From assembly GCA_020635795.1 (NCBI GenBank), contig JACJZD010000006.1:36073-100072 (forward strand): DNA of 64,000 nucleotides, in the 5' to 3' direction. Positions 764-51,426 of the stretch are shown piece after piece. The DNA comes from Flavobacteriales bacterium (GTDB lineage Bacteria > Bacteroidota > Bacteroidia > Flavobacteriales_E > Vicingaceae). The first letter of the stretch is position 1. Every line of letters begins with the position of its first letter. The position numbers and the translations under genes are program-made. Under the pieces are notes generated by a model that was not told the origin of the DNA, did no database searches, and saw nothing but the letters and a program-made list of their open reading frames with translations.

Positions 764-791
764 GCCCCTCCTTCGGAGGGGATGGGGAGGC
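764..791 (-). repeat. hairpin/G-tract element copy 1 (sense form on minus strand: GCCTCCCCATCCCCTCC-GAA-GGAGGGG)
   Basis: CCCCTCC (765-771) TTCG GGAGGGG (776-782), followed by ATGGGGAGG. In gene sense it starts 2 nt after the TAA of the carboxyltransferase gene (stop at 794-796). Confidence 0.8.
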
Positions 792-793
792 AT

Positions 794-2335
794 TTACAAC
801 GGAATATTTCCGTGTTTCTTTTTTGGTAAAACAGCTACTTTATTTTCTAGCATTTTAAATGCTTTAATCAGTTTTTCTCTGGTTTGTTCGGGTTTAATTA
901 CTTCATCAATATAACCACGAGCAGCAGCGTTATATGGATTAGCAAACATTTCAGCATATTCGGCTTCTTTTTCTTTCCATTTTGCTTCCGAATCAGCAGC
1001 TTCTGATATTTCTTTTTTGAAAATGATTTCAGCAGCACCTTTAGCTCCCATTACAGCAATTTCAGCCGATGGCCAAGCGTAATTCATATCAGCACCAATG
1101 TGTTTCGAGTTCATTACATCGTAGGCACCACCGTAAGCTTTACGGGTAATTACAGTAATTCTAGGAACGGTAGCCTCGCAGAACGCATACAATAGTTTTG
1201 CACCGTTGGTAATAATAGCATTCCATTCTTGGTCAGTACCTGGTAAAAACCCTGGAACATCTTCAAACACTAATAAAGGAATATTAAATGAATCGCAAAA
1301 ACGAACAAAACGAGCTCCTTTTTGAGACGATTTAATATCTAAAACTCCCGCTAAAAATGCTGGTTGGTTGGCAACAATTCCAATAGATTTTCCTGCTAAA
1401 CGAGCAAAACCTACCACAATGTTTTCAGCAAAATCTTTGTGTATTTCGTAAAACGAATTTTCGTCAACTGTTCCTGCTATAACCTCTTTAATATCGTAAG
1501 GTTGATTCGCATTTTCTGGTATAATAGTGTTTAGTGCTGGTCGTAATTCGTTACCCTTTTCGTAAGGAATACTTGGAGCATCTTCCTCACAGTTTTGAGG
1601 CATAAAACTCAATAGGGTTTTTATTCCTGAAATACACTCCAATTCATTCGCATACGTTAAATGTGTTACCCCCGATTTAGTAGAATGTGCCGAAGCTCCA
1701 CCTAAATCTTCTGAGCTAACTTCTTCATGTGTAACTGTTTTAACCACATTGGGTCCTGTAACAAACATGTACGAGGTGTTTTCAACCATCATAATAAAAT
1801 CGGTTAAAGCAGGAGAATAAACAGCACCACCTGCACATGGCCCCATAATGGCTGATAGCTGTGGAATTACACCGCTAGCCAACGTGTTTCTATAAAAAAT
1901 ATCGGCATAACCACCTAAACTTACTACACCTTCTTGAATACGAGCACCACCCGAATCGTTTAAACCAATAACTGGAGCACCGTTTTGCATTGCCAAATCC
2001 ATCACTTTACAAATTTTTTCAGCATGAGCTTCGGCAAGCGAACCTCCCATTACGGTGAAATCTTGAGAAAAAACATAAACCAAACGACCATTTACGGTTC
2101 CGTAACCAGTTACAACTCCATCGCCCAAGAAAACCGTTTTGTCCAACCCAAAATTGGTTGAACGATGTGTTACCAACATACCAATTTCTTCGAACGAACC
2201 ATCGTCTAACAAAAAATGAATACGTTCTCTGGCTGTTAATTTTCCTTTTTTATGTTGTGAAGCAATTCTATCAACACCTCCAGCAATTTTTGCTTCTTTT
2301 ATTTTTGCCTCTAATATCGCGGTCTTATCTGTCAT
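794..2335 (-). CDS. acyl-CoA carboxylase carboxyltransferase (beta) subunit (propionyl-CoA carboxylase beta / methylmalonyl-CoA decarboxylase alpha family)
   Basis: 513 aa. Carboxyltransferase motifs [29 protein letters not shown] and [11 protein letters not shown] are present. Confidence 0.9.
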
Positions 2336-2441
2336 CTATTTGTAATTTATTGGGTTAAAATAACAAGTGTAAAAATAATTAATACAAAATGAATTTCATA
2401 GCAGAAATAGTAATTTAGTCGAACTCTTATTGCACGAATTT

Positions 2442-3887
2442 ATGGAAAACGAAAACAACAATCCGTTACAAGACAATCAACCCGACGAACAACTTAAATT
2501 TAATTTAAAGGAGTCGTTTAAATCGTTGGTGGTTTATTTGCAAGAAATCATTAACATTAGAGATGGTGTTGATGTGGAAGGTTCTGTTCAAGCCATTAAA
2601 AACGACATTGATTTTAAAGGAGTTAACATTTGGATTTTAGGAGCATCCATTGCAATTGCATCTATTGGTTTAAATGTAAACTCTACAGCAGTAATTATCG
2701 GAGCCATGTTAATTTCTCCATTAATGGGTCCAATTGTAGGTATAGGTTTGGCGGTTGGTGTAAACAATGTAACCATGCTGAGTCGTTCGTTAAAAAGTTT
2801 AGGCACAGCGGTGTTAATTAGTGTGTTGGTTTCAACCATTTATTTTTTATTAACTCCATTTGGTGAGGTACAGTCAGAATTAATTGCACGTACTCGTCCA
2901 ACACTGCTGGATGTGTTAATCGCTTTTTTTAGTGGAATAGCGTTAATTGTAGCAAAAACTAAAAAAGGAACTATTGCAAGCACGCTATATGGTGTTGCTA
3001 TTGCTACAGCCTTAATGCCACCACTTTGTACTGCTGGTTATGGTTTGGCTAATGCAAATTGGCAGTTCTTTTTCGGCGCATTTTATCTGTTTTTAATCAA
3101 TTCGGTATTCATAATTTTAGCTACATGGTTGGTAGTAAAATATTTGAGGTTTCCACTTACCACATATATTGATGATGCTCGCCAAAAAAAAGTAACCAAT
3201 TACATTTTAATTTTTTCGGCAGTAGTCCTTATTCCAAGTGGTTTTACTTTTTGGGGGTCTATTCAAGAAAGTATTTTTAAAAAGGATGTGGAAAACTTTA
3301 TAGCTCAAAACTTTGACATTGAAGGAAGTGAAATTATCAGCAAAAAAATAAACTACAAAACTGAAGAAGGCGACAAATCATCGATAGAAGTGTATATTAT
3401 TGGAAACAATATTGATGCGGCTACCGAACGACGTTTATTAAAAAAAATGCCTGAATATGATTTACAAGGCGTAAAACTTAAAATTCATCAAGCAAAAGAC
3501 AATTCGAATGAATTAGCCAACAAATTGAGTAAAGAGGTTCGTTCTGGAATTTTAGAAGATATTTATCGTAAAAACGAAGAAGCGATAAAAGATAAAGATG
3601 AGAAAATAAGGTTGTTAGAATCTCAAGTTAATTTATTATCGCACAACGATGTTCCTTATAACAACCTAAAAAAAGAGATAAAATTACAGTACCAAGATGT
3701 AGTACAAATGGAGTTTGGAAAAACCATTGCTACCGATTTTAGCGAAAAGCAAGATACCATTGCCACTTTTTTAATTCGTTGGAACAATCAACTTAGCGAC
3801 GAACAACGTCGTGAAAAGAAAAATGCATTACAAACTTGGTTGAGAGTTCGATTAAACGATGAAAAAGTAAGGGTAATTAATTATTAA
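2442..3887 (+). CDS. DUF389-type polytopic membrane protein with soluble coiled-coil C-terminal half
   Basis: The ORF opens at TTG 2430; the first ATG is 2442 (MENENNNPLQ). It carries the signature stretch GAMLISPLMGPIVGIGLA and several TM helices, and the C-terminal ~200 aa are hydrophilic. Confidence 0.7.
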   Translation: MENENNNPLQDNQPDEQLKFNLKESFKSLVVYLQEIINIRDGVDVEGSVQAIKNDIDFKGVNIWILGASIAIASIGLNVNSTAVIIGAMLISPLMGPIVGIGLAVGVNNVTMLSRSLKSLGTAVLISVLVSTIYFLLTPFGEVQSELIARTRPTLLDVLIAFFSGIALIVAKTKKGTIASTLYGVAIATALMPPLCTAGYGLANANWQFFFGAFYLFLINSVFIILATWLVVKYLRFPLTTYIDDARQKKVTNYILIFSAVVLIPSGFTFWGSIQESIFKKDVENFIAQNFDIEGSEIISKKINYKTEEGDKSSIEVYIIGNNIDAATERRLLKKMPEYDLQGVKLKIHQAKDNSNELANKLSKEVRSGILEDIYRKNEEAIKDKDEKIRLLESQVNLLSHNDVPYNNLKKEIKLQYQDVVQMEFGKTIATDFSEKQDTIATFLIRWNNQLSDEQRREKKNALQTWLRVRLNDEKVRVINY

Positions 3888-3979
3888 GCTTTGTTTGAGG
3901 CATTAATGGTTGAGTAGTTTATTTGATTAGTTTTGTGCATGGTTTTCAGTAGTTCAATAAACTGAAAGATGAACGGTAT

Positions 3980-6160: not shown

Positions 6161-6732
6161 ATTATTTTAACTTTAAAGAAATAGCCACTGCAACCATGGT
6201 TTTGTTTGCTGTTATTGATATTATTGGTTCTGTACCAGTTATCATAGATTTACGCCAAAAAACAGGACATATTCAGTCCGAAAAAGCAAGTTTAGTATCG
6301 TTGGTTATCATGATTTTGTTTTTGTTTGTTGGTGAATCTATTCTAAGTTTAATCGGAATTGATGTCAACTCATTTGCCATTGCAGGTTCGTTTATTATTT
6401 TCTTTTTGGCTTTAGAAATGATATTAGGAATTCGTTTGTATAAAGAAGACGAAAACTCTATAAAAACAGCGTCAATTGTTCCTATAGCTTTCCCATTAAT
6501 TGCTGGTGCTGGAACCATGACTTCATTACTTTCGTTACGCGCCGAATATGCTGTTCAAAACATTGTTATTGCTATTATTGTAAATGTTATTTTGGTTTAT
6601 TTTGTATTAAAATCATCGGCATTTATTGAGCGTATTTTAGGTAAAGGAGGAATAGCTGTTTTACGTAAAGTTTTTGGTGTAATACTTTTAGCTATTGCTG
6701 TAAAACTGTTTAAAACCAACGCAGGATTTTAA
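6157..6732 (+). CDS. MarC family (UPF0056) integral membrane protein
   Basis: 191 aa with about 6 TM helices. The start overlaps the antiporter stop (ATGA). Confidence 0.7.
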   Translation: MNYFNFKEIATATMVLFAVIDIIGSVPVIIDLRQKTGHIQSEKASLVSLVIMILFLFVGESILSLIGIDVNSFAIAGSFIIFFLALEMILGIRLYKEDENSIKTASIVPIAFPLIAGAGTMTSLLSLRAEYAVQNIVIAIIVNVILVYFVLKSSAFIERILGKGGIAVLRKVFGVILLAIAVKLFKTNAGF

Positions 6733-7205
6733 TGGCAAAAATTACCATATATACTGATGGTGCTGCAAAAGGCAATCCTGGAAAAGGTGGTTATGGTGTA
6801 GTAATGATGAGCGGCAACCACAAAAAAGAACTCTCGGAAGGCTTTAGAAACACCACCAACAACCGTATGGAATTGTTGAGTGTAATTGTTGCTTTAGAAA
6901 CAATTATTAAAGAAAATGCTCAAGTAGAAATTTTTTCTGACTCCAAATATGTAGTTGATTCGGTAGAAAAAGGCTGGGTGTTTGGTTGGCAAAAAAAGGG
7001 ATTTAAAGGAAAAAAAAACATCGATCTTTGGCAACGATTTTTAAAAATTTACCCCAAACATCAAGTCAAATTTAATTGGGTTAAAGGTCATGCAGGTAAT
7101 TTGTATAACGAGCGTTGTGATGAATTAGCAGTTCAAGCAGCTGAATCTCAACATCTTTTGATAGATGAAGGATATGAGAATGAAGCTTCGTCAGGCTTAT
7201 TCTAG
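6732..7205 (+). CDS. rnhA: ribonuclease HI
   Basis: 157 aa. RNase H catalytic motifs YTDGAAKGNPG, NNRMELLSVIVALE, FSDSKYV and VKGHAGNLYNERCDELA are present. Confidence 0.92.
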   Translation: MAKITIYTDGAAKGNPGKGGYGVVMMSGNHKKELSEGFRNTTNNRMELLSVIVALETIIKENAQVEIFSDSKYVVDSVEKGWVFGWQKKGFKGKKNIDLWQRFLKIYPKHQVKFNWVKGHAGNLYNERCDELAVQAAESQHLLIDEGYENEASSGLF

Positions 7206-7301
7206 GGTGTATCGCATATTATCAATTGGTTGGTCTAATTTAAAAATTATTTGGGTGTTTTTAGGTAGGTTTACTTAAATTTGTCGACCTTTAAAATTAG
7301 C

Positions 7302-8462: not shown

Positions 8463-8529
8463 AACTCTTCCTAAATAAATTCCTGTTTCCTGTTCATTTT
8501 TATTACTTTCAAACTTTAAAATTTTGAAA

Positions 8530-11481
8530 ATGAACGCATTTCTTCGATTTTTCGGATTGTTTTTAATGATTTGTTGTCAACTTAACACAGCATTTTCAAT
8601 TGAATTAACAAAACAAGACACCACAAAAAAAGGAGCTTATTATTTTGTTTCCAATCGTAATTCAACTGAACCAGGAAGTTACACCATGTATAAAGCCCGC
8701 ACCAATCAAAGCGGAATTTCTTCGACGGTTATTCGTGGAAATTTTGAAATAGCTGGTTATCCACACATGCGAAAAGCAGAGATTTCGGTGTACAATATTT
8801 CTAACGATGAACTGGTTGGGGTTTACAATACCAATGCTAAAACGGGAAATTATTTAGTGATTTTAATGCCCAATTTGAAATACGAGTTTGTAATCAACAC
8901 CTATGGTTATGCCCCTATTAGAAAAGTAGTGGAAATACCAGGCTATGCAAGCACCAATGTACACGACGAAATTTCTAAACAACAAATAACAGTAACAATC
9001 GATTCTAACCGAGTTAATGCAGCGTTAAACACATGGTTTGTAGAAGAAAAAGAACCTACATTGTTTTTGTTAACGGTTTATGATGAAAACAATGAGAGCA
9101 CGCACAAGGTGGAGTTGTACGAAACAAACGCATTAGAAATTGATGTTGAGCGTAGGCAATTAACTGAAACCGAATTTGGAAACATTGATGAGTTGTTAAA
9201 AAAACAGGCTGAACACGAAAACAAAAAACCAGAATATGCTGAAAAAGCATTTTTAAAAAAAGACTACAAAACAGCTTCCGCTTATTATTCTGAACTACTT
9301 ACACTCGACCCATCAGACCCATTGAACAACTACAAAAAAGGAGTTTGTGTTTATCATTTGGAAGAGAACAAACTAAAAGCGTTGTTTTATTTGTTAAAAG
9401 CCGAAAAAGATCCAAACGTGCCATACGATGTGTTTTATTATTTAGGAATGACTTACCACTCGTGGTCAGATTTTGCTAAAGCCGAACAAGCATTTTTGGA
9501 ATATAAAGCCAAAGCAAAGCCAACAGAAATAACCAGTTTAAACATTGACCGATACATTGAATATTGCTCAAACGGTAAATTGTTGATTTTAGATCAGTAC
9601 GACATGTACATCAAAAACAAATCGTTTATTGATGTTCAAAAACTACATAAAGAACTACCAACCGAATTAACAAGTGGTAAATTTTTAGAGAAAACATCTT
9701 TTTTTATTTCACCAATTGATAGCAAGAAAAAGGAAAAAATGTGGATGTTTAAAACCGAACAGAACGAAATGATTCAAACCAGTTATGGGTTGGACGAAAA
9801 ATCTGGCAAAGATTTGTTTGTAAACGTGTTGGTTGGTGGTGATAAATATGGTATTCCGAATTCGTTAGGAACAAAAGTAAACACCCCTTATGACGAAGAT
9901 TATGCCTATGTAACCTTAGACGGAAAAACACTTTATTTTGCCTCAACTGGGCACAACAGCATGGGTGGATATGATATTTTTACAGCAACCAGAAAAACGG
10001 TAAACGACCCTTGGGGTGAGGTTAAAAACATGGGTTATCCAATCAATTCGCCGTACGACGATTTTATGTTTATGCCAAGTTTGAATGATGAAGAAGCTTA
10101 CTTTGTCTCAAACCGACGAAGTTCAACTGGCGGGTATAGTTTGTATAAAATAAACATGCCAAAACCACCAAAACCACTTACCATCATCAAAGGTCATTTT
10201 ATGACAAACGATTCCATTCCAAATTTTTCGGCATCTATTGCGGTTTACAACACCAACAATCAAGAAGTGGTTGGTATTTATAACTCTAATGCCAATACAG
10301 GAAATTTTTTATTAGCATTAATGCCAGGTGTAAAATATGAATTTAGCATTGTTGCTGATGGCTACAATGAGCATGTTGCTTATGTTACCATTCCGTTTCA
10401 AACCGAAGATTTTCCATTACGCCAAAGCATTAAACTGAAAAAAGAAGGTTCGTTTGAGATTTTAAACATCGATAATTATTTTACCAAAGAAGAAGCAGAA
10501 AAAGCACCTGAGTATAAATTTACCAAGAAAGATTTTGAAAAAAATGCGGTAAAAGAAACAACTGCTCCTAAACAAAACATTGCAGAAAAATTTAGGAAAC
10601 CATCGAGCGACCAACAAAAAATATTGGATGCTGCAGAGCAATTTTTCATCAACAAACAATATATAAAATGTGCCGAACAATATGCTAAAATTGCTCCATT
10701 ATTAGATTTAACCGATAAGCAGCATTACATGTATGGAAAAAGTTTGTTTAATGTTTCTCGCGATTACGAAAAAACCATTGAAAGTTTAGAAAAAGCGGCG
10801 TTAAACAAAACAACTCCATACGATGTGTATTACATGTTAGGTAAAACCAACCATTATTCGTATCGTTTTGAACGAGCAGTTAAAGCCTATGAAAAATATA
10901 AAACCTTAGCCAACGAAAAAGAGATTGAAAAACACGCCATTAATGATGAAATTAACTTGAGCTTGTTTGGTAAAAAGATTGTAAATAGCCCTAAACCCAT
11001 TGAAGTGTTGGCAAAAAAAGAATTTAAACAAACAAATTTCCACACCATTTATGGTTCGTTAGATATTGATGCTAAATTTTTACTTGCCCCAGACGATATG
11101 ACAACTGCAAAAGACAAGAAAGAGGGATTTAGACCAACCATGTATTTGAACAACAGCAAAACGCTTATTTATTATTCGAGTTATGGCGAAAATGGCGAAA
11201 ATGGAAAAGACCTATTTTTTATGAAAAAATTACCGAACAATACATGGTCGGAGCCGATAAATGTAGGTAATGTGATAAATAGTGCTGGTGATGAAGACTT
11301 TCCTTTTTTATCGAAAGACGAAACAACACTTTATTTCTGCTCAACAGCTCACGGAAGTATGGGAGGTTATGATGTGTTTAAAAGTACTTGGGACGAAAAA
11401 AGCAATTCTTGGTCAGCACCAATTAATTTAGGAGCACCAATCAATTCTCCTTTTGATGATTTATTTTATGTAGAAGAATAA
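8530..11481 (+). CDS. secreted multidomain protein: two tandem copies of [carboxypeptidase-regulatory-like beta-sandwich + TPR + PD40/TolB-like beta-propeller repeats]
   Basis: ATG 8530 (MNAFLRFFGLFLMICC is a signal peptide). The three-part module appears twice. Compare VGVYNTNAKTGNYLVILMPNLKYEF with VGIYNSNANTGNFLLALMPGVKYEF, VPYDVFYYLGMTYHSWSDF with TPYDVYYMLGKTNHYSYRF, and LYFASTGHNSMGGYDIF with LYFCSTAHGSMGGYDVF. Confidence 0.75.
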   Translation: MNAFLRFFGLFLMICCQLNTAFSIELTKQDTTKKGAYYFVSNRNSTEPGSYTMYKARTNQSGISSTVIRGNFEIAGYPHMRKAEISVYNISNDELVGVYNTNAKTGNYLVILMPNLKYEFVINTYGYAPIRKVVEIPGYASTNVHDEISKQQITVTIDSNRVNAALNTWFVEEKEPTLFLLTVYDENNESTHKVELYETNALEIDVERRQLTETEFGNIDELLKKQAEHENKKPEYAEKAFLKKDYKTASAYYSELLTLDPSDPLNNYKKGVCVYHLEENKLKALFYLLKAEKDPNVPYDVFYYLGMTYHSWSDFAKAEQAFLEYKAKAKPTEITSLNIDRYIEYCSNGKLLILDQYDMYIKNKSFIDVQKLHKELPTELTSGKFLEKTSFFISPIDSKKKEKMWMFKTEQNEMIQTSYGLDEKSGKDLFVNVLVGGDKYGIPNSLGTKVNTPYDEDYAYVTLDGKTLYFASTGHNSMGGYDIFTATRKTVNDPWGEVKNMGYPINSPYDDFMFMPSLNDEEAYFVSNRRSSTGGYSLYKINMPKPPKPLTIIKGHFMTNDSIPNFSASIAVYNTNNQEVVGIYNSNANTGNFLLALMPGVKYEFSIVADGYNEHVAYVTIPFQTEDFPLRQSIKLKKEGSFEILNIDNYFTKEEAEKAPEYKFTKKDFEKNAVKETTAPKQNIAEKFRKPSSDQQKILDAAEQFFINKQYIKCAEQYAKIAPLLDLTDKQHYMYGKSLFNVSRDYEKTIESLEKAALNKTTPYDVYYMLGKTNHYSYRFERAVKAYEKYKTLANEKEIEKHAINDEINLSLFGKKIVNSPKPIEVLAKKEFKQTNFHTIYGSLDIDAKFLLAPDDMTTAKDKKEGFRPTMYLNNSKTLIYYSSYGENGENGKDLFFMKKLPNNTWSEPINVGNVINSAGDEDFPFLSKDETTLYFCSTAHGSMGGYDVFKSTWDEKSNSWSAPINLGAPINSPFDDLFYVEE

Positions 11482-11482
11482 T

Positions 11483-11512
11483 GCCCACCCCAACCCTCCC
11501 GAAGGGAGGGAG
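11483..11512 (+). repeat. hairpin/G-tract element copy 2 (GCCCACCCCAACCCTCCC-GAA-GGGAGGG-AG)
   Basis: Begins 1 nt after the TAA at 11479-11481. It has a 7-bp GC stem CCCTCCC/GGGAGGG, and the opposite strand reads GGGAGGGTTGGGGTGGG. Confidence 0.85.
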
Positions 11513-11558
11513 TAACACAACCCACTAAAAGCAAACGACTCAGCCTAACTACTTATTT

Positions 11559-12455
11559 ATGAATCTTAAAATAACAATCATACAATCGGAAATACATTGG
11601 GAAAACGTGGATAAAAATTTAGCCATGTTTACCGAAAAAATAGCATCTATAAAGGAAGAAACAAACCTTATAATTTTACCCGAAATGTTTACTACTGGAT
11701 TTACCATGAATTCGACAAGCCAAGCCGAAACCATGAATGGTAAATCCATTTTATGGATGAAACAACAAGCTAAAAGCAAAAATGCAGTTGTTGTAGGAAG
11801 TTTGATTATTGTAGAAAATCAGGCTTATTTTAATCGTTTAATTTGGGCACAACCCGACGGAAAAATTTACCATTACGATAAAAGGCATTTGTTTAGAATG
11901 GCAAATGAACACGAGCATTTTTCGGCAGGAAAAACTCGTTTAATTGTGGAGTTAAAAGGTTGGAAAATTTGCCCTTTGATTTGTTACGATTTACGTTTCC
12001 CAGTTTGGAGTAGGAATAAGTCCATCACTCACCACCCGACACCCACAACCCACTCCTCAACTCCCTCCACCCATCACTCACAACCCGCTTACGACTGCCT
12101 AATATACATTGCCAATTGGCCAGAAGCAAGAAAAGAACCTTGGAGCAAATTATTGGAAGCAAGAGCTATCGAAAATCAAGTTTATGTAGTTGGTGTAAAT
12201 CGAGTAGGAAAAAGCCCATCCCCAACCTTTCCCCATAGGAAGGGAGGAGTAGTTAATCCACAAAAGGAAGAAGAATCAGGTATAATTTACTCTGGAAATT
12301 CTGCCGTTATCGACCCAAAAGGAAATGTGATTAGTACCATACCAGCATATCAAAACACTATCGAAACCACAACATTAAACCGCCAAGAATTAGAAGACTT
12401 TAGAGAAAAATTTCCTGTTGGCTTGGATGGTGATGATTTTGAAATACTTCACTAA
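11559..12455 (+). CDS. carbon-nitrogen hydrolase (nitrilase superfamily; omega-amidase YafV-like) carrying two repeat-derived in-frame insertions
   Basis: 298 aa. The Glu-Lys-Cys triad context is present (ILPEMF, HYDKRHLF, ICYDLRFP). Two low-complexity inserts interrupt conserved blocks: KSITHHPTPTTHSSTPSTHHSQPA and KSPSPTFPHRKGGVVNPQKEEES. Confidence 0.85.
   Translation: MNLKITIIQSEIHWENVDKNLAMFTEKIASIKEETNLIILPEMFTTGFTMNSTSQAETMNGKSILWMKQQAKSKNAVVVGSLIIVENQAYFNRLIWAQPDGKIYHYDKRHLFRMANEHEHFSAGKTRLIVELKGWKICPLICYDLRFPVWSRNKSITHHPTPTTHSSTPSTHHSQPAYDCLIYIANWPEARKEPWSKLLEARAIENQVYVVGVNRVGKSPSPTFPHRKGGVVNPQKEEESGIIYSGNSAVIDPKGNVISTIPAYQNTIETTTLNRQELEDFREKFPVGLDGDDFEILH
12018..12090 (+). repeat. 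C-rich intragenic repeat insertion (ccatcactcac...cccatcactcac) inside the amidase gene
   Basis: CATCACTCAC occurs twice (about 12022 and 12072), with runs of CCC/CACCC. The complement carries several GGG tracts. It interrupts the conserved RFPVWSRN...YD..IY block. Confidence 0.6.
12214..12249 (+). repeat. hairpin/G-tract element copy 3, diverged, in-frame inside the amidase gene
   Basis: GCCCATCCCCAACCTTTCCCC-ATA-GGAAGGGAGGAG aligns with the intergenic consensus GCCCACCCCAACCCTCCC-GAA-GGGAGGGAG. Confidence 0.7.
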
Positions 12456-12495
12456 AAAAGTTTAATCACTACATTTGCTAATAAAACTATTTAAC

Positions 12496-14801: not shown

Positions 14802-14806
14802 AAAAA

Positions 14807-15817: not shown

Positions 15818-15900
15818 AAAGGGTTGCGAATTTATAAAATTAAAGAAAATTGACGAGGGTTATCCGTTTATTTTTTTAAATTTAAACTAAAATTATTGAA

Positions 15901-16365: not shown

Positions 16366-16368
16366 TGC

Positions 16369-16815: not shown

Positions 16816-16816
16816 G

Positions 16817-17641: not shown

Positions 17642-17749
17642 GAGTTTTTAATTGGGTATTCAAAATTCGTTGAAAAAGATTAATTTGAGCCATCATGTTA
17701 ATAATGTTTAATAACTTGTTTTACTTTTACAACAAGCAATTTCCATTCA

Positions 17750-27585: not shown

Positions 27586-27605
27586 ATTCCTGCCTGAGCA
27601 GGAAT
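27586..27605. repeat. short hairpin repeat ATTCCTGC-CTGA-GCAGGAAT
   Basis: Perfect 8-bp stem in intergenic DNA, adjacent to hairpin/G-tract element copy 4. Confidence 0.6.
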
Positions 27606-27631
27606 GATGTGAAGAATATATTTGGTTAAGT

Positions 27632-27662
27632 CTCCCTCCCTTAGGGAGGGTTGGGGGTGGGC
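27632..27662 (-). repeat. hairpin/G-tract element copy 4 (sense form on minus strand: GCCCACCCCCAACCCTCCC-TAA-GGGAGGG-AG)
   Basis: The plus strand reads CTCCCTCCC TTA GGGAGGGTTGGGGGTGGGC. In gene sense it starts 4 nt after the helicase-nuclease TAA (27667-27669). Confidence 0.85.
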
Positions 27663-27666
27663 TTTT

Positions 27667-30600
27667 TTACACCAAAACCAACTCCTTGTCTTTGATGTAC
27701 AACAAGTAACTTTCAATGTTGGTGTAGCCCATTTCGGCGAGTAAAATCTTGTAATTTTCTAATTGTTGTTTGTGTTTTTTCTCTTTTTTACCCGTTTTGT
27801 AATCCACAATTATGGTGTTGTTGTTTTTTATCACTACTCTATCGGGTTGGTACGATTCGCCTGAGGGCAACAAAATGGTTGTTTCGGTTTTTAGTTCATC
27901 AAATGCAGTAAAAAAGCTTTCTACTTTGGGCAATTTTATCAATTCATGCAACTCGGCTAAAATGCTTAGTTTGTTGTTCTCGTCAAACAAACCACGGTTT
28001 ATAAAGCGGTCAATGGTGCTTTCTAAATCGCTCAATTGTTTTATTTCCGAAAGCAATTGGTGTATTAAATTACCATAATCGGCAGATGTTTCGGGGTTTT
28101 CTACATCCCAAAATTTAGGCGCTTGGTAACTGATGTCAATTTTATTTCGCCAAGGGTTGTAGCTTATTTCGGTTAATACCTCGTTAGCCGATTTATGCTG
28201 TTGCTCTGTTACGATTTTTTTAGTGGAGAACAAACCAAAACGAAACTCATTTTCATTTACGGCAGCATCGGGTTGAGTTAAACAATATTCAAAAAAGTAG
28301 TTTTTGTAATTACCATCTTTGTTGGGTTTATCTACTTCGCTCAACACATACATGCGGTCTTTTGGGCGGGTTAATACCACATAAAGCAAGTTGATGGTGT
28401 CCAATATCGATTTTGCTTTTTCGTTCTCGTAATCGTCTTTTAAAACGGTGTCTAAAAGCGATGCGTTTAAATTGATGATGGAAGCATCCAATCCTTTAGC
28501 AATGGGTTCTTCCGTCCACAAATAATCTTCGTTTTTATCTTTTCCAGTAGTGCTCGCAAACGGAAAAATGACCACAGGAAATTCCAAACCTTTCGATTTG
28601 TGTATGGTCATTACCTGAACAGCATTGATACCTTCAGGAATAATTACCGAAAACTTGCTGCTTTTGCTGTTCCACCAATCAATAAAATTGACAATGGAAT
28701 TGTCTTTTTTAGAAGCATATTCATGCACTTTATCCAAGAAAAACTGTACAAAAATGTTGATTTCTTTGTCCAACCCAAAATGTTGAATAAAGTGCTCGGT
28801 AAGTTCGTACAACGAAAACGTGGTAGCATTAGAAACTTCCAGCGACAATTGATGTGAGGCTAAAAAATCGGCCAAATAATCTTGGTCTTTGTGTTGAATA
28901 AAATCCACATTTTGCTCGCCAACAAAACGTGTATGGATTAAATAATTGATGGCGTATAAATGATGAGCAGGGTCTTTTGGAGTAGCAATATAGTTGAATA
29001 AACTCAACAAAAACTTCACTTCATTAGAGTTGTTCAGCAACAAACTTTCTGATGAAATAACCTGAATGTTGTTTTCCAACAGAAAAGAAGCTACTTCCGA
29101 AGCCCTATTGTTGCTTCGTGTAAGAATTGCAATATCGCTTAATTGGTAACCATCGTTTAACGAGGTGTCGATTATTTTTTTGATTTCGGTAAATGTAATT
29201 TCATCATCATCGGGGTCTAAAAACGAAATGGCAACTCCACCACCAGTATTTTCGGGTTTAAACCCTTGGTTTAAATTGGCATAAATGGGGTTGAATTTTT
29301 CGGATAAATTGCTTGAAATGGAATTAAAAAATTTGTTGTTGAAATCAACCACTTCGGCTTTTGAACGGTAATTGTCGTTCAAGTCTTCGTTTTTATGGTT
29401 TCGTATCAAGGTAGCTTCACGCTCCAACAATAACTGATTGTTTTTGTGATTGTAAACGTAAGGCAGTTTGATGATTTGCTCTACTTCGCCACCTCTAAAA
29501 CGGTAAATGGCTTGTTTAGCATCGCCAACAATCATGTTGTAATGCCCGTTTGCCAGCGAGTTTTCAATTAGCGGGATAATGTTTTGCCATTGTATGGTTG
29601 AAGTATCTTGAAACTCATCAATTAAATAATGTTGGTATTTTTCGCCCAAACGCTCATAAATAAAAGGAATGGATTCGGTAAGAATTATTTTGGCGATTTG
29701 CTTGTTGAAATCCGACAAGTTTAAAATGTTGTTGTCGGCTTTAAATTCCAAAATGGTTTTTTCAATTTCGTTGATTACCGCAATTTGGTAAATGTTTTTG
29801 AGCAACAAGGTTTTTAAAACGTACGAGCCATAATCCTTCTCAATATATACTCTCGATTGGTTAAAGAGTTCGATTAGTTTTGCTTCATGTGTATCAATCA
29901 AGTCTTTTTGTGGTTGAGGAACGGACTGTGCATACCAATTTTTTTCGCCTGCAACAATTTTTTGAACCGTAGCATTTGGGGTAAACGACTTTAATATTCT
30001 TAAATATTCCCAATAATTGTAAAAATTACTTCCACTAAAACTTTTTGGTTCAATCCCTGTCGATTTGATAAAATCTAAGGCATTTTTTGCCATTTCTTTT
30101 ACGGCTTTTTCAAAAGCATTGATTTCAACAATTAAATCGGTTTTTATTTTTTCGAAATCGTCGATGCTCAAATCTCGAATTTTTTCGAGGTGCGATTCTC
30201 CACCGTCTTTAATCAAGTTTTTAGCAAATTTTATTAAATCGCTTTCAATGTTCCAGCTTTTTTCGTCGTCGGCTTTTTGTTTGCTGTAATCCAATAAAAG
30301 CTTGGTTATTTTCTCGTTTTTACCCACTTCTGCAATCAACATGTCGATAGCATTTTTGAGCACTTCGTCTTCGTTAATTTCTATGCCAAAATTGAGCGGA
30401 AGTTTTAGGTCTAAGGCAAATGTTCGGATAATTTTAGTGGTAAATTTATCAATGGTGCTGATGCCAAAATCGTTGTAGTTGTGTAAAATAGAGCTTAAAA
30501 CAGCGCCACTTCGTAGTTTTATTTCTTGCTCGCTTAAAGCCAATCCACCATCATTTAATGGTTTCATCAACTCCACTAACAAATGTTTCGGAGTCCCTTC

Positions 30601-30819
30601 CAATGGTTTTTTTCCTGATAAAGCTTGCAAGGCAGAAATAACCCGCTCTTTCATTTCTGATGCTGCTTTATTGGTAAACGTTATAGCTAAAATACGTTTG
30701 TACGCTGCTGCATCGTTGGTTTTTAACCCGATTTTTAAATACTCCTTAACTAAAGTAAAAGTCTTGCCCGAGCCAGCCGATGAGTTGTAAACCGTGAAAT
30801 TGTTGTTGGTTGAGTTCAA
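27667..30819 (-). CDS. UvrD/Rep-type helicase fused to C-terminal PD-(D/E)XK nuclease (AddA/RecB-like)
   Basis: 1050 aa. Walker A SAGSGKTF, helicase motifs LIDEFQDTS, VGDAKQAIYRFRGG and TIHKSKGLEF, and a C-terminal nuclease motif PDRVVIKNNNTIIVDYKTGKK. Confidence 0.85.
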   Translation of the reverse strand: MNSTNNNFTVYNSSAGSGKTFTLVKEYLKIGLKTNDAAAYKRILAITFTNKAASEMKERVISALQALSGKKPLEGTPKHLLVELMKPLNDGGLALSEQEIKLRSGAVLSSILHNYNDFGISTIDKFTTKIIRTFALDLKLPLNFGIEINEDEVLKNAIDMLIAEVGKNEKITKLLLDYSKQKADDEKSWNIESDLIKFAKNLIKDGGESHLEKIRDLSIDDFEKIKTDLIVEINAFEKAVKEMAKNALDFIKSTGIEPKSFSGSNFYNYWEYLRILKSFTPNATVQKIVAGEKNWYAQSVPQPQKDLIDTHEAKLIELFNQSRVYIEKDYGSYVLKTLLLKNIYQIAVINEIEKTILEFKADNNILNLSDFNKQIAKIILTESIPFIYERLGEKYQHYLIDEFQDTSTIQWQNIIPLIENSLANGHYNMIVGDAKQAIYRFRGGEVEQIIKLPYVYNHKNNQLLLEREATLIRNHKNEDLNDNYRSKAEVVDFNNKFFNSISSNLSEKFNPIYANLNQGFKPENTGGGVAISFLDPDDDEITFTEIKKIIDTSLNDGYQLSDIAILTRSNNRASEVASFLLENNIQVISSESLLLNNSNEVKFLLSLFNYIATPKDPAHHLYAINYLIHTRFVGEQNVDFIQHKDQDYLADFLASHQLSLEVSNATTFSLYELTEHFIQHFGLDKEINIFVQFFLDKVHEYASKKDNSIVNFIDWWNSKSSKFSVIIPEGINAVQVMTIHKSKGLEFPVVIFPFASTTGKDKNEDYLWTEEPIAKGLDASIINLNASLLDTVLKDDYENEKAKSILDTINLLYVVLTRPKDRMYVLSEVDKPNKDGNYKNYFFEYCLTQPDAAVNENEFRFGLFSTKKIVTEQQHKSANEVLTEISYNPWRNKIDISYQAPKFWDVENPETSADYGNLIHQLLSEIKQLSDLESTIDRFINRGLFDENNKLSILAELHELIKLPKVESFFTAFDELKTETTILLPSGESYQPDRVVIKNNNTIIVDYKTGKKEKKHKQQLENYKILLAEMGYTNIESYLLYIKDKELVLV

Positions 30820-31047: not shown

Positions 31048-31125
31048 ATTTGTTAAAACAAGATTACGGGTCAATCCTTCGTCAAGTTCAGGATGACATT
31101 GACCAGAATGACGGAAAAGAGGGTG

Positions 31126-32040
31126 TTAATCTAAGAATTTTGCAATAAAATTTATTTTTTCTTCGAGCGGTAAATTCCCGTCTATCCAGTTGATGGTAAA
31201 ACCATCTTTTTCCATTTTTCTATACCAAGTCATTTGGCGTTTAGCAAACTGATGTATGGCTGAATTTAATTTCTGAAACATGTCGTTATACGACAATTCA
31301 TCTTGCAAATGTTGTGTGATGAGTTTGTACTCCAATCCGTAAAATTTCAATTTTTCGGGGTCAACACCATTGGCAATTAATGTTTTTACTTCTTCAATCA
31401 TTCCTTCGTGTTCCAATCGGTGTTTTAACCGCTCGGTAATTCGTTTTTTAATGATGGCTCGGTCAAAATCAATTCCAAAAATAAGGTGTTCAATTTTAGG
31501 AAAATCTCTTATCAACGCATCGTTTTCGGTTTGAAATTTGGCTACCTCAATGGCTCTGATAATTCGTTTTTTGTAAATGCTGTCGGTGGTGTTGTGTATG
31601 GTTTTGTAATCCGACAACATGTTATTCAACTCCTCAATGGATTTTTGTTCCAATTCCGTTCTTAATTTGGTGTTTTCAGGAACTTCTAAAAACCGATAAC
31701 CCTTAACCACTGCATCAATATACAGACCAGAACCACCGCATAAAATGGGTGTATTGTTGTTTTTTAAAACGGTTTCGTAAGCTTTTAAAAAATCTTTTTG
31801 GTATTCAAACACATTGTATTCAGCTCCAGCATCAACAATATCAATTAAATGATATGGGATTTTTACTCCGTTTACTTCAAAATCATCCAAATCCTTACCT
31901 GTACCAATATCCATACCTCTGTACACTTGTCGCGAATCGGCACTAATTACTTCGCCCGAAATACTATGCGCTAAATTCGCTGCTAAAGTTGTTTTTCCAG
32001 TAGCTGTTGGACCTAGTATGACAATAAGTTTGTTGTTCAT
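31126..32040 (-). CDS. miaA: tRNA dimethylallyltransferase
   Basis: 304 aa. P-loop GPTATGKT, ISADSRQVYRGMDIGTGK and CGGSGLY are present. Confidence 0.93.
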   Translation of the reverse strand: MNNKLIVILGPTATGKTTLAANLAHSISGEVISADSRQVYRGMDIGTGKDLDDFEVNGVKIPYHLIDIVDAGAEYNVFEYQKDFLKAYETVLKNNNTPILCGGSGLYIDAVVKGYRFLEVPENTKLRTELEQKSIEELNNMLSDYKTIHNTTDSIYKKRIIRAIEVAKFQTENDALIRDFPKIEHLIFGIDFDRAIIKKRITERLKHRLEHEGMIEEVKTLIANGVDPEKLKFYGLEYKLITQHLQDELSYNDMFQKLNSAIHQFAKRQMTWYRKMEKDGFTINWIDGNLPLEEKINFIAKFLD

Positions 32041-44684: not shown

Positions 44685-44691
44685 GCGGATG

Positions 44692-46350: not shown

Positions 46351-46407
46351 AATTTTTATTTTAACACATAGAATTAAACCATGTGGTAGTGTTATACTTT
46401 TCTTTTA

Positions 46408-46437
46408 CCCCCTCCCTTTGGGAGGGTTGGGGTGGGC
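46408..46437 (-). repeat. hairpin/G-tract element copy 5 (sense form on minus strand: GCCCACCCCAACCCTCCC-AAA-GGGAGGG-GG)
   Basis: The plus strand reads CCCCCTCCC TTT GGGAGGGTTGGGGTGGGC. In gene sense it starts 2 nt after the yidD TAA (46440-46442). Confidence 0.85.
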
Positions 46438-46439
46438 TT

Positions 46440-46670
46440 TTATGGAACTGGGTCATGCCCGTGTCCGCCCCATGGATGACAAGACAAAATTCTTTTTAAA
46501 CCTATCCAACCACCTTTAAAAGGACCATATTTGTTTATTGCTTCAATACTGTATTGCGAGCATGTAGGGTCGTATCGGCAATTTTGTCCTAAAATTGGAG
46601 AAATGCTCAATTGATAAAAACGAATCATCAATATAAACAACTTACTCACCACGCTCTTCAAACCTTGCAT
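46440..46670 (-). CDS. yidD: membrane protein insertion efficiency factor YidD
   Basis: Motifs [34 protein letters not shown] and [13 protein letters not shown]. The start is uncertain: 46670 overlaps rnpA by 29 nt, and the alternative ATG is 46628. Confidence 0.88.
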
Positions 46671-48362: not shown

Positions 48363-48591
48363 TAAGATTCAATACTAAATGGGTAATTATAATATGATGT
48401 GTTTTATTTGTGTGTTGTTCTCAAGTACTTGGAAGCATTTGTATTTTCAAAATAAGAATTTTAGAATGTAGAAACTAACGTGAGTTGGATATAACTTTGA
48501 TAAATAATACGCTGATTATAAAATATGAAACAGTAATCTTTTATGGAGTGTTTCAAAAACCTTATTTTAGAGGTCTTTAAAAACAAGACCT

Positions 48592-51426
48592 ATGCCTGAA
48601 AATACCAAAAAACTTTTTTTACTCGATGCATTTGCTTTAATCTACAGGGCTTACTTTGCATTTGGCAACAATCAACGATACAATTCTAAAGGCTTAAACA
48701 CCTCTGCAATGTTGGGTTTTACCAATACCTTAATTGAAGTGTTGGAAAAACAAAAACCATCACACATTGCGGTGGTATTTGATGCTCCAGGTGGAGCCAC
48801 CAATCGTGAGGCAGATTTTGCAGCTTATAAAGCGGGCAGACAAGAAATGCCTGAGGATATTCGTACAGCTATACCTTACATCAAAGCCATTGTCGAGGCA
48901 TTTAAAATTCCAATTTTGTTAAAAGAGGGGTTTGAAGCGGATGATATTATTGGCACGATGGCAAAACATGCCGAAAAAGAAGGGTTTACTACTTACATGA
49001 TGACTCCTGATAAGGATTTTGGGCAGTTGGTGTCAGACAACATTTTTATTTTTAAACCTGCAGCTTTTGGCAAACCAGCCGAAGTAATGGGTGTAAAAGA
49101 AGTTTGCGAAAAATTTGAAGTAGAAAATCCTTTACAGGTTATTGATATTTTAGGCTTGTGGGGTGATGCAGTTGATAATATTCCAGGAATACCTGGTATA
49201 GGCGAAAAAACTGCAAAACTGTTGATACAAAAATACGGCAGTGTTGAGAATTTAATTGCCAATGCCGAAGATTTGAAAGGAAAACAAAAAGAAAACGTCA
49301 TCAATTTTGCTGAGCAAGGCTTGTTATCAAAAAAATTAGCTACCATTATTTTAGATGTTCCTGTTGAATATAGTTTTGACGAACTAATATTGGAAGAACC
49401 CGATGAACAAAAAATAACAGAATTGTTTGCCGAATTGGAATTTAGAAACTTAGCCAAACGAGTGCTGGGTAAGGAAATTCAAATTACTCCAACAGCTCAG
49501 GTTGGTACAACACCCAACAATGGGCAAATGGATTTGTTTAGCCTCCCCCCAGCCCCCTCCGAAGGAGGGGGAGACCAACTCCAAAAAAATAATGAAGAAG
49601 AAGTTGTTGAAGCTGGAAAAAATATTGAAAATGTTTCACACACTTATTTATTAATTGATACCCCTCAAAAAAGAGCCGATTTAATTTCGAAATTGGAAAA
49701 GCAAAAATCGTTTTGTTTTGATACCGAAACTACAGGCTTAAACCCTTTTGAGGCAGAATTGGTGGGGATGTCGTTTTCATACCAACCAACCGAAGGGTAT
49801 TACATCCCTTTTTCTGAAAACCAAGAAGAAGCAACAACTATTTTAAAAGAATTCAAGACAGTTTTTGAAAATACGGCCATTGAAAAAATAGGGCAAAACA
49901 TCAAATACGATATTAATGTGTTACACAAATATGGCGTTCGAATAAAAGGAAAGTTGTTTGATACCATGATAGCTCACTTTTTGCTAGAGCCAGACATGCG
50001 ACACAACATGGATTTACTTTCCGAGGCTTATTTAGGCTACAAACCTGTTTCTATCGAAACTTTGATTGGTAAAAAAGGAAAAAATCAATTGAGCATGCGT
50101 GATGTTGAGGTTGATAAAATTGTTGAGTACGCTTGTGAAGATGCTGATATCACCCTTCAATTAAAAAACTACTTTGAGCCCCAATTTACTCCCGAAATAA
50201 AAGAGGTGTTTGAAAAAGTTGAAGCACCTCTAATTACGGTATTGGCAGCGATGGAAAACGAAGGTATTAAGCTGGATGTTGCAGCACTAAAAACGTTTTC
50301 TGCCGAGCTGGAAATTTTAGGAACTAACCTGGAAAAAGATATTTTACAATTGGCAGGAACTACATTTAACATTGATTCCCCGAAACAGTTGGGAGAGGTG
50401 TTGTTTGAGTACATGAAAATTATTGAAAAACCTAAAAAAACCAAAACCGGACAATATGCTACCAACGAAGATGAACTTTCGAAACTGTTAGGGAAACACG
50501 ACATTATCCCTAAAATATTGGAATACCGTTCGGTAAAAAAATTAAAATCGACTTATGTTGATGCTTTACCAGAATTGGTAAGCCCAACAACAGGAAGAAT
50601 ACATACTAGCTATATGCAAACAGTTGCATCAACTGGTAGATTGAGTTCGAACAATCCCAACTTACAAAACATTCCTATAAGAACCGAAATGGGGCGAGAA
50701 ATTAGAAAATCGTTTATTGCTAAAAACGACGATTATTTGTTGTTAGCTGCCGATTATTCTCAAATTGAATTACGAATTATTGCTGCCTTGAGTAACGATG
50801 AAAACATGCAGCAGGCTTTTGTAAACAAAGAAGATATACATGCGGCTACAGCTGCAAAAGTGTTTGGTGTTGCTTTAGCTGATGTAGATAGAGAAATGAG
50901 AAGCAAAGCCAAAGCGGTTAATTTTGGAATTATTTACGGACAATCGTCGTTTGGATTGGCACAAAACTTAAACATTTCTAGAGGCGAGGCAAAAGAAATT
51001 ATCGATACCTATTTCGCCCAATATCCCAAAATAAAACAATACATGGATGGCAATATTGATTTTGCCAAGGAGCACGGTTATGTAGAAACCATTTTACACC
51101 GTAGAAGGTATTTAAAAGACATCAACTCGAGCAACGCCATCGTTCGTGGTCATGCCGAAAGAAATGCTATTAACGCACCAATACAAGGGTCGGCAGCAGA
51201 TGTGATAAAAATTGCCATGATTAACATTTTTAACGAATTTGAAAAACAACAGTTCAAATCAAAAATGTTGTTGCAGGTGCACGATGAGTTGGTTTTTGAG
51301 GTGTATAAACCCGAACTAGAAATACTAAAACCAATTATTAGAGATAAAATGGAGCACGCTGTTAAGTTAAGCGTTCCGCTAGAAGTAGAAATGAACGCAG
51401 CAAAAAATTGGTTAGAAGCACATTAA
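48592..51426 (+). CDS. polA: DNA polymerase I
   Basis: 944 aa with 5'-3' exonuclease (LLDAFALIYRAYFA, GIPGIGEKTA), 3'-5' exonuclease (FCFDTETTGL) and polymerase (DYSQIELRI, QVHDELVFE) domains. A repeat-derived insert lies in the linker. Confidence 0.95.
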   Translation: MPENTKKLFLLDAFALIYRAYFAFGNNQRYNSKGLNTSAMLGFTNTLIEVLEKQKPSHIAVVFDAPGGATNREADFAAYKAGRQEMPEDIRTAIPYIKAIVEAFKIPILLKEGFEADDIIGTMAKHAEKEGFTTYMMTPDKDFGQLVSDNIFIFKPAAFGKPAEVMGVKEVCEKFEVENPLQVIDILGLWGDAVDNIPGIPGIGEKTAKLLIQKYGSVENLIANAEDLKGKQKENVINFAEQGLLSKKLATIILDVPVEYSFDELILEEPDEQKITELFAELEFRNLAKRVLGKEIQITPTAQVGTTPNNGQMDLFSLPPAPSEGGGDQLQKNNEEEVVEAGKNIENVSHTYLLIDTPQKRADLISKLEKQKSFCFDTETTGLNPFEAELVGMSFSYQPTEGYYIPFSENQEEATTILKEFKTVFENTAIEKIGQNIKYDINVLHKYGVRIKGKLFDTMIAHFLLEPDMRHNMDLLSEAYLGYKPVSIETLIGKKGKNQLSMRDVEVDKIVEYACEDADITLQLKNYFEPQFTPEIKEVFEKVEAPLITVLAAMENEGIKLDVAALKTFSAELEILGTNLEKDILQLAGTTFNIDSPKQLGEVLFEYMKIIEKPKKTKTGQYATNEDELSKLLGKHDIIPKILEYRSVKKLKSTYVDALPELVSPTTGRIHTSYMQTVASTGRLSSNNPNLQNIPIRTEMGREIRKSFIAKNDDYLLLAADYSQIELRIIAALSNDENMQQAFVNKEDIHAATAAKVFGVALADVDREMRSKAKAVNFGIIYGQSSFGLAQNLNISRGEAKEIIDTYFAQYPKIKQYMDGNIDFAKEHGYVETILHRRRYLKDINSSNAIVRGHAERNAINAPIQGSAADVIKIAMINIFNEFEKQQFKSKMLLQVHDELVFEVYKPELEILKPIIRDKMEHAVKLSVPLEVEMNAAKNWLEAH
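49541..49573 (+). repeat. hairpin/G-tract element copy 6, in-frame inside polA (GCCTCCCCCCAGCCCCCTCC-GAA-GGAGGGGG-AG)
   Basis: Encodes SLPPAPSEGGGD in the linker between the 5'-3' exonuclease and 3'-5' exonuclease domains. It has the same orientation and reading frame as copy 3. Confidence 0.75.

Follow-up and report, generated by a model that had tools for sequence, protein, structure and literature searches.

Short GC-rich hairpin repeats of a Flavobacteriales genome as probable solo ends of a Bacteroidota selfish-element family linked to DUF559 nuclease genes

A GC-rich hairpin element of about 30 nt occurs six times in a 64,000-nt stretch of a Flavobacteriales genome (contig JACJZD010000006.1, positions 36,073 to 100,072; hereafter the window). 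We argue that these six copies are probably solo ends, devoid of an open reading frame (ORF) and non-autonomous, of a selfish-element family that is widespread in Bacteroidota. The first-pass annotation of the window had listed, among several possible roles, a mobile repeat resembling repetitive extragenic palindromic (REP) sequences or Rickettsia palindromic elements (RPEs). That proposal is supported and extended by three lines of evidence: copies are present or absent in relatives, some copies lie in frame within genes, and the copies share the architecture of the terminal inverted repeats (TIRs) that bracket DUF559 nuclease genes.

The link to DUF559 comes from widely spaced pairs of copies in other genomes. 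DUF559 ORFs were found between the members of such pairs in loci L040, L073, L087 (twice) and L101. Polaribacter L040 has an in-frame insert in recG, placed between helicase motifs (DEQHRFGV ... PPHILVMTATPIPRTL); the insert has the form AGCCCACCCCAACCCTCCCAAAGGGAGGGAG-DUF559-AGCCTCCCCTTTGGGGAGGTTGGAGGGGCC, and its left end is the window's element. Similar arrangements occur in Prevotella (L073 and L101) and twice in leuS of a Chitinophagales metagenome-assembled genome (MAG; L087), and the sequence of the window 30-mer is a DUF559-flanking end in both Polaribacter L040 and Prevotella L073. The ORF was assigned to DUF559 by Pfam (PF04480, E = 5e-32), and the family profile matches PDB entries 3hrl and 3r3p (intron homing endonuclease I-Bth0305I); DUF559 is a Vsr-like PD-(D/E)XK nuclease. 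Its homologues often bear the names of their hosts (RecG, MetH, methylmalonyl-CoA mutase, LeuS) and carry flanking peptides encoded by the TIRs.

We tested the association on 80 metagenomic DUF559 loci with 1.5-kb flanks. A GC hairpin composed of a pyrimidine arm and a purine arm was present within 150 nt of DUF559 on the upstream side in 62 of the 80 loci, on the downstream side in 59, and on both sides in 47. Over the remaining 174.6 kb of these loci, this detector returned 43 hairpins, a background of 0.044 per 180 nt. Upstream ends have a C-rich leader 5' of the hairpin and downstream ends have the hairpin followed by a G-rich trailer; read in the same sense, both are AGCC-(C/T-rich leader)-hairpin. 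Where the threshold allowed orientation to be scored, 57 flanking ends pointed their leader outward and 3 did otherwise. A few DUF559 genes (L170, L202 and L101) have reversed ends with leaders facing inward. The distance from the left hairpin to the DUF559 core is steady at ~45-60 nt across different host genes.

Each TIR spans ~30-40 nt. Its outer terminus is AGCC, followed by a C-rich leader and then by a GC hairpin made of a pyrimidine arm and a purine arm, and the window 30-mer shares this architecture exactly. The termini read AGCC or TGCC both in the window copies and in 60 DUF559-flanking pairs. When left ends were compared with reverse-complemented right ends, mean identity was 0.76 within an element and 0.64 between elements, and 13 of 60 elements (22%) had ends at least 85% identical, compared with 1.6% for ends drawn from different elements. 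Three loci (L197, L208 and L200) have perfect 35-nt inverted repeats, loop included. The hairpin sequence varies from element to element (CCCTCCC, CTCCCCC, CCCCTCTCC, TCCCCCC and others) and the architecture stays constant. Among 120 related ends, each single frame is free of stop codons in 77-85%, and all six frames are stop-free in 31%.

Complete elements sit mostly inside genes. Upstream of DUF559 the open frame extends past 80 codons in 61/80 loci; on the downstream side it extends past 60 codons in 63/80. The main hosts are class-I aminoacyl-tRNA synthetases (37 loci, at several sites), RecG (11 loci) and a UvrD/AddA-like helicase (3 loci); others include an ABC-F ATPase, a SpoIIE phosphatase, a DegT aminotransferase, the CCA-adding enzyme, GH31, PurL and methylmalonyl-CoA mutase. 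The translated TIRs of in-frame elements are Pro/Ser/Gly-rich, and the DUF559 inserts are flanked by 10-25 residues of this TIR-encoded linker. Ten insert-bearing host proteins contained no Hint/intein splicing domain, only the host domains and DUF559. The frame is closed on one or both sides in 19 loci; in 12 of them the left end lies 0-6 nt past the stop codon of a co-oriented long ORF or overlaps it (T|AGCC), and the geometry of these stop-adjacent complete elements is that of the window's four intergenic copies. Complete elements are co-oriented with host transcription, plausibly because they depend on host transcription and translation. In the free-standing DUF559 elements L161, L162, L181 and L210, the purine arm of the left hairpin (GGAGG-like) lies 4-10 nt ahead of the DUF559 ATG and resembles a Shine-Dalgarno sequence; Shine-Dalgarno sequences are rarely used in Bacteroidota.

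Short copies that lack the nuclease gene form a family across the phylum. A scan with the 23-nt core, using one genome per species, returned at least 120 stretches, and all but four of the matches listed belong to Bacteroidota. Carriers among the matches listed include Prevotella (several copies per MAG), Flavobacteriales, Vicingus, Polaribacter, Gelidibacter, Pedobacter, Saprospirales, Chitinophagales and Alistipes. The four others are two Pyrinomonadaceae loci with the usual flanks (L020 and L108), one from Fulvimonas (L082) and one MAG with no taxon given (L090). A search of IMG/VR gave only 3 matches, and phage was rejected as the vector. The conserved unit is (A/G)(G)CCCACCCCAACCCTCCC-N3-GGGAGGG-AG(C), and it occurs as single copies, as inverted pairs with leaders outward, and as in-frame copies within genes. 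Where neighbouring copies have opposite orientations, 22 pairs point their leaders outward, and most of these have 8-190 nt between the two copies; the 3 pairs with inward leaders are all separated by more than 650 nt. Prevotella miaB holds an in-frame pair (PTPTLPKGGS...TPSLREGWGG), and in-frame copies are also found in ValS, GH31 and DegT. The DUF559-bearing hosts L152, L160, L207 and L213 contain additional ORF-less pairs or arrays in frame in the same proteins, such as SPTPALPEGEGA...PSLGGVRGGF in ValS and ASPTGGGLVGAGGLVG with PPTPSRRGGD in GH31; some genes amass many inserts.

Within the window, the leader motif CCCCANCCCYYCC, with at most one mismatch, picks precisely the six copies (0.17 expected; 0/100 shuffles reach 6), and the hairpin CCCTCCC-N3-GGGAGGG has 3 exact matches against 0.02 expected, so that every copy reported by the first-pass annotation was recovered. 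The copies are ~70-80% GC in a window of 33-36% GC. Copies 2, 4 and 5 form subtype a, (A/T)GCCCACCCC(C)AACCCTCCC-N3-GGGAGGG, of which copy 3 is a variant (CCTTTCC-N5-GGAAGGG); copies 1 and 6 form subtype b, GCCTCCCC..CCCCTCC-GAA-GGAGGGG. A hairpin of 7-8 bp is the predicted fold in 5/6 copies, with predicted energies across the copies of -11.7 to -16.9 kcal/mol. The GC hairpin ascribed to every copy is predicted in that form for five; copy 3 folds as a variant of 7 bp that includes a G-U pair and has an N5 loop. The reported lack of an adjacent U-tract is borne out: no T-run follows the hairpin at any of the six copies, and a terminator scan of window 1-20000 picked up none of them. The canonical four-run G-quadruplex motif that had been noted on the template strand of three copies is indeed present in copies 2, 4 and 5, and only in these. 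The window contains no inverted dimers, and neither a search of the whole window against Rfam at gathering thresholds nor one of copy 2 at permissive thresholds matched the element.

The host genes of the six copies were assigned from the ORF listing and Pfam. Four copies are solo ends between genes. Copy 1 (764..791, minus strand; subtype b, GCCTCCCCATCCCCTCC-GAA-GGAGGGG) lies in a 196-nt spacer, 2 nt past the TAA of an acyl-CoA carboxyltransferase gene (794..2335, minus strand). Copy 2 (11483..11512, plus strand; subtype a, GCCCACCCCAACCCTCCC-GAA-GGGAGGG-AG) begins 1 nt past the TAA of a PD40-repeat gene (8524..11481). Copy 4 (27632..27663, minus strand; subtype a, AGCCCACCCCCAACCCTCCC-TAA-GGGAGGG-AG) lies 3-4 nt past the TAA of a UvrD/AddA-type helicase-nuclease gene (27667..30819, minus strand), and copy 5 (46408..46438, minus strand; subtype a, AGCCCACCCCAACCCTCCC-AAA-GGGAGGGGG) 1-2 nt past the TAA of yidD (46440..46670, minus strand). 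The other two copies are in frame on the sense strand of genes. Copy 3 (12213..12249, plus strand) lies within a CN-hydrolase/omega-amidase gene (11559..12455) and is translated as KSPSPTFPHRKGG; close homologues vary at three insertion hot spots of this gene, and the one occupied by copy 3 reads VG-x-DGK-x-I-x-YSGNS in homologues without an insert. Copy 6 (49540..49573, plus strand) lies within polA (48592..51426), in the hypervariable linker that joins the 5'-3' exonuclease domain to the 3'-5' exonuclease domain, and is translated as SLPPAPSEGGGD.

The first-pass annotation had claimed that all copies share one orientation relative to transcription, and in the window the C-rich strand is indeed the mRNA sense of the local ORF in 6/6. 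The six copies, three on the plus and three on the minus strand, fall on one replichore, over which cumulative GC skew rises monotonically. Because copies occupy both strands of one replichore, their orientation follows genes, and orientation set by replication is ruled out. Sense orientation in 6/6 is by itself weak (p about 0.03). The stop-codon geometry is far less expected by chance: the gaps of the four intergenic copies are 1-4 nt (TAA-T, TAA-AA, TAA-AAAA and TAA-AT), as had been claimed, and uniform placement of a 30-nt element in the spacers concerned (196, 77, 163 and 89 nt) would put all four within 4 nt of a stop with a probability of ~1e-5.

Across the phylum the picture is broader. 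Gene positions there came from a greedy longest-ORF caller and are approximate, above all for start codons; this approach replaced an earlier stop-to-stop ORF statistic that was too noisy in the higher-GC Prevotella loci. Among 61 single intergenic copies, the leader faces the stop of a co-oriented gene in 34, at distances mostly of 0-14 nt, and the start of an opposite-strand gene in 27, mostly at 3-38 nt. The leader side rather than the hairpin side is nearer the gene boundary in 48/61 (p = 8e-6; medians 23 vs 104 nt). The window's 6/6 therefore samples the co-oriented-stop class only, and the claim of a constant orientation relative to transcription gives way, phylum-wide, to leaders that face the nearest gene boundary. 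The suggestion that the element targets TAA(A) sites next to stop codons survives in part: adjacency to stops is real and shared with complete DUF559 elements, and TAA(A) would be no more than a candidate insertion target.

Orthologous loci, which the first-pass annotation had proposed to compare for presence or absence of the element, reveal that copies are polymorphic between close relatives. The spacer of copy 1 is 196 nt in the window and ~10 nt in the syntenic locus L127. Copy 2 is missing both from L129, at 96% DNA identity, and from the syntenic species L127; their 72-nt spacer is unrelated in sequence, so that the spacer was exchanged as a whole and not merely interrupted. At the position of window 11482-11558, a purine-rich repeat, GATTTGAAGATGGAAGCCTGAAGACCGAAGT, replaces copy 2 in these relatives, and in L239 the same spacer holds tandem GAAGACCGAAGT units and further hairpins. 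Copy 6 is found in some PolA homologues at 86-90% identity and is missing from others, including one that is 95% identical. Copy 5 is present at the orthologous yidD site of Flavobacteriales L057 with one loop base different, where the downstream spacer can no longer be aligned. Copies 1, 4 and 5 are carried by all near-identical strains retrieved.

The CN-hydrolase gene that houses copy 3 is particularly variable. Its homologues span 258 to 327 residues, and their alignment has three hot spots with lineage-specific inserts that are translated members of the repeat family, copy 3 among them; the insert peptides include PIPNPSRREGS, LSPFGGVGGGS, SPLEGRLRGV and KSPSPTLPEGKGG. In L239 the copy 3 subtype occurs as a 69-nt left-plus-right pair at a different hot spot of the same gene. 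At the second hot spot, the window has a C/A-rich and nearly G-free tract (12024-12090; CACCACCCGACACCCACAACCCACTCC...CCACCCATCACTCACAACCC, encoding SITHHPTPTTHSSTPSTHHSQ) that resembles the tandem CACCCACCTGACA units preceding the element in Prevotella, and other homologues have a left-plus-right pair or a KFKV-type repeat there.

These observations suggest how the window copies could have arisen. A complete element consists of a DUF559 gene bracketed by TIRs and sits, co-oriented, in a host gene or directly after its stop codon. Loss of the nuclease gene may then leave MITE-like (miniature inverted-repeat transposable element) pairs with leaders outward, or single ends. Solo left and right ends, leader-outward pairs and in-frame copies would all be expected if a co-oriented element within or between genes loses its interior: a solo left end would remain in the sense strand right after a stop, as in four window copies; a solo right end would remain before a start codon; and a solo end within a gene would survive if the reading frame is kept, as in the other two. 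The GC-rich, largely stop-free and palindromic make-up may be an adaptation for recognition of DNA ends combined with tolerated transcription and translation. The pyrimidine/purine composition gives Pro/Ser/Thr/Leu or Gly/Glu/Arg codons in most frames, which would fit tolerance of read-through and recalls what the first-pass annotation said of stop-free frames. We infer that the short copies may be mobilised by the DUF559 nuclease, which could cleave these ends and so initiate homing, gene conversion or transposition.

Several observations weigh against the view that the window copies are solo ends of DUF559 elements. The 80 DUF559 loci were the top scorers among relatives of a single query subfamily, and the sample is therefore not unbiased. 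No target-site duplication could be defined in the flanks of 60 elements, which consistently share only an A/T ahead of AGCC. Neither the window nor ~120 kb of close relatives contains a DUF559 gene. Identity among DUF559 cores reaches 96% when the host gene is shared; across host genes it is no higher than 82% and mostly no higher than 68%. Nuclease-bearing elements therefore appear bound to their sites, and the short copies are numerous and nearly identical. Nuclease genes could instead home into pre-existing pairs, which would reverse the causal arrow. Relatives differ at copies 2, 3 and 6 by replacement with sequence of similar length, not by clean insertion. Finally, copy 5 is conserved between genera despite its diverged flanks, unlike a decaying relic; its conservation therefore points to selection or gene conversion.

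The reversed causal arrow is part of an alternative in which the repeats are an independent REP/REPIN-like family moved by another enzyme, for example a REP-associated tyrosine transposase (RAYT) of Bacteroidetes subclass 2.6, and DUF559 is a secondary parasite that homes into pairs. We regard this as unlikely, though it is the most serious competitor. It would account for the excess of short copies over DUF559-bearing ones (5 DUF559 ORFs near ~150 copies) and for the tie of each DUF559 lineage to one host gene. Single copies, inverted dimers near 3' ends and in-frame copies are known REP behaviour (PMC3733652), and Bacteroidetes-specific RAYT genes of subclass 2.6 are on record with flanks that have 'atypical secondary structures' (PMC6006769). 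However, a search for the HUH/Y motif detected no RAYT-like ORF, either within the window or across the ~0.9 Mb that surrounds 148 copies, and all-against-all clustering of 2,241 ORFs around these copies returned no recurrent family except DUF559-linked ones. The termini are also AGCC, not GTAG or CGTC, and the constant distance between left hairpin and DUF559, together with the matching ends, suits a single unit better than repeated invasion.

Two further alternatives were considered. The element could be a regulatory RNA, a 3'-UTR (untranslated region) hairpin that stabilises or terminates the upstream transcript and whose sense orientation and position are selected. All four intergenic copies are in sense 1-4 nt past a stop, their hairpins start 12-16 nt past it, which would place them outside the footprint of a terminating ribosome, and copy 5 is conserved at yidD across genera. 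Canonical hairpin-plus-T-run terminators are also few in window 1-20000 (5 vs 13.1 in shuffles, none at a gene end), which suggests a different mode of 3'-end formation in this organism. Yet the U-tract is lacking, sense-strand hairpins also lie within polA, the CN-hydrolase gene, miaB, valS and others, and 27/61 single copies are antisense to their neighbours, 3-40 nt upstream of a start codon. Copies mark only 4 of ~55 window gene ends, copy 2 is missing at 96% DNA identity, and no Rfam family matched. An intrinsic terminator is ruled out by the missing U-tract and by the copies within ORFs. As the reason why the element exists, the 3'-end stabiliser or terminator floated in the first-pass annotation is accordingly improbable, given that sense hairpins occur in polA and in further essential genes; single copies, copy 5 for instance, could have been exapted to such a role. 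Still far less credible is a template-strand G-quadruplex, GGGAGGGTTGGGGTGGG, as the functional unit acting on RNA polymerase or on replication. The four-run motif with 1-2 nt loops in copies 2, 4 and 5 is very unlikely by chance at 34% GC, but copies 1, 3 and 6 do not have it, the hairpin sequesters two of its four G runs, and only 11/120 related DUF559-flanking ends contain four G3+ runs, which excludes the quadruplex as a conserved feature of the family. The features conserved family-wide are leader, hairpin and AGCC terminus, and polymerase-blocking tracts would harm essential hosts such as valS, recG and polA. We consider the motif, which had also been offered as a reason for the element, a by-product of one subtype.

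Other features of the neighbourhood are recorded here in their own right. A second hairpin repeat family, ATCCTTCGACAAGCTCAGGATGACAATGA (minus strand TCATCCTGAGCTTGTCGAAGGAT), has two copies in the window that are 90% identical: 726-754, directly downstream of copy 1, and 31074-31102, ~24 nt past the stop of a minus-strand gene (31126..32040). A GC hairpin, TTCCTGCTCAGGCAGGAA, lies at 27585-27606, ~30 nt downstream of copy 4, and resembles what we take to be a repeat common in many bacterial genomes. The gene-end spacers of the window thus seem to collect several repeat families. In L129, a palindromic insert of ~120 nt (CCTGTCAATTCGAGTGAATTTCACGA..., 13241-13360) is absent from the window between the convergent genes ending at 14801/14807, and is a further strain-polymorphic repeat family. 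The sole Rfam match in the window is an unrelated S-adenosylmethionine (SAM) riboswitch (RF00162, 65 bits; 55980-56105, plus strand) upstream of the gene starting at 56354. Just left of the window on the same contig, a C5 cytosine DNA methyltransferase gene (PF00145; 3506-4735 of L228) lies beside Usp/YCII genes. Vsr-type nucleases are classically partnered with C5 cytosine methylases; we found no evidence of a link here.

Returning to the interpretation of the six copies as solo ends, we tentatively advance a wider proposal that joins them with the complete elements: a previously undescribed class of Bacteroidota selfish elements in which DUF559 occupies the niche of an intein without splicing and the ends spread in trans as REP-like repeats. 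Expression of DUF559 would rely on read-through from its host or on coupling to the stop codon of that gene. In-frame sites would be RecG, aminoacyl-tRNA synthetases, PurL, PolA-type linkers and similar positions, where ends that are largely stop-free could code for Pro/Gly linkers in most frames. ORF-less pairs and solo ends would be spread or homogenised in trans, which would make DUF559 a functional analogue of RAYT with a different nuclease fold.

If this is true, DUF559 would be a second class of REP-associated enzyme beside the HUH-type RAYT, with an intein-like lifestyle without splicing. DUF559 is a large family without an established role, and a consistent link to hairpin repeats together with residence in essential genes would supply one. 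The link also explains frequent annotation artefacts in Bacteroidota, such as split housekeeping genes or 'endonuclease domain' fusions, as well as Pro/Gly-rich inserts (PTPTLPKGGS, SLREGWGG) and variable protein lengths. The copies are strain-level markers by their presence or absence, and together the insertion sites chart permissive positions in conserved enzymes, a natural map that may be useful for protein engineering. The case also counsels against assigning a host regulatory role to such GC-rich hairpins, or to G-quadruplex motifs, when they turn up in an AT-rich genome; the hairpins studied here are most likely not regulatory signals.

Short palindromic repeats by gene ends and within genes are known already, and the DUF559 link appears to be new. 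In the open-access literature we found no description of a DUF559/Vsr-like gene with AGCC-terminated hairpin inverted repeats, no account of in-frame DUF559 in many housekeeping proteins, and none of the exact repeat sequence; the chance that the complete element represents a class of its own is substantial. Most REPs are found by the 3' ends of genes, where the neighbours are co-directional or convergent; some touch the stop codon, and occasional copies are in frame within genes (PMC3733652). Like REPs and REPINs, the present family consists of short, GC-rich, dispersed palindromes, as singles and inverted dimers that are mostly extragenic and near gene ends, and like REPtrons (RAYT/TnpA_REP) the complete element has one nuclease-type gene within inverted repeats. 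Unlike in REPtrons, the flanked gene encodes a DUF559/Vsr-like PD-(D/E)XK protein rather than an HUH-Y1 RAYT and usually lies in frame inside a host gene. The terminus also differs, AGCC with a C-rich leader in place of GTAG or CGTC, and, unlike in REPs, one 23-nt core extends across Bacteroidales, Flavobacteriales, Sphingobacteriales, Chitinophagales and Saprospirales.

Among nuclease-based systems, Vsr-like nucleases are known from 'fractured genes' (PMC2677866). As with inteins and homing endonuclease genes, the nuclease ORF here lies in frame in RecG, aminoacyl-tRNA synthetases and PurL, with lineages bound to one host, and DUF559 is related to the Vsr-like homing endonuclease I-Bth0305I (3r3p). 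Unlike inteins, the DUF559 inserts have no Hint domain, are bracketed by hairpin inverted repeats and have many ORF-less derivatives. The inverted pairs without an internal gene resemble MITEs in their location near genes, in ends that match those of a protein-coding element, and in presence or absence between relatives. They differ in that the partner is not a DDE or known transposase, the units are only 30-70 bp, solo ends are common, and no consistent target-site duplication was found in the flanks of 60 elements.

Two families of small repeats are closer in their behaviour toward genes. RPEs, which Ogata et al. are said to have described in 2000, are reportedly in-frame palindromic selfish DNA of ~100-150 bp with presence or absence between relatives, and we know of no protein gene associated with them. 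The present copies likewise keep the frame inside genes, add a peptide and are missing from some orthologues; they are shorter (30-70 bp), belong to a different phylum and are tied to a nuclease gene. The small dispersed repeats or 'nanoMITEs' of cyanobacteria, attributed to Elhai et al. in 2008, are said to be ~20-30 nt long and to insert in genes and RNAs without destroying them; to our knowledge they have no link to a nuclease gene. Like these, the present copies are very small and tolerated within genes; unlike these, they have another sequence, belong to another phylum and are linked to a nuclease gene.

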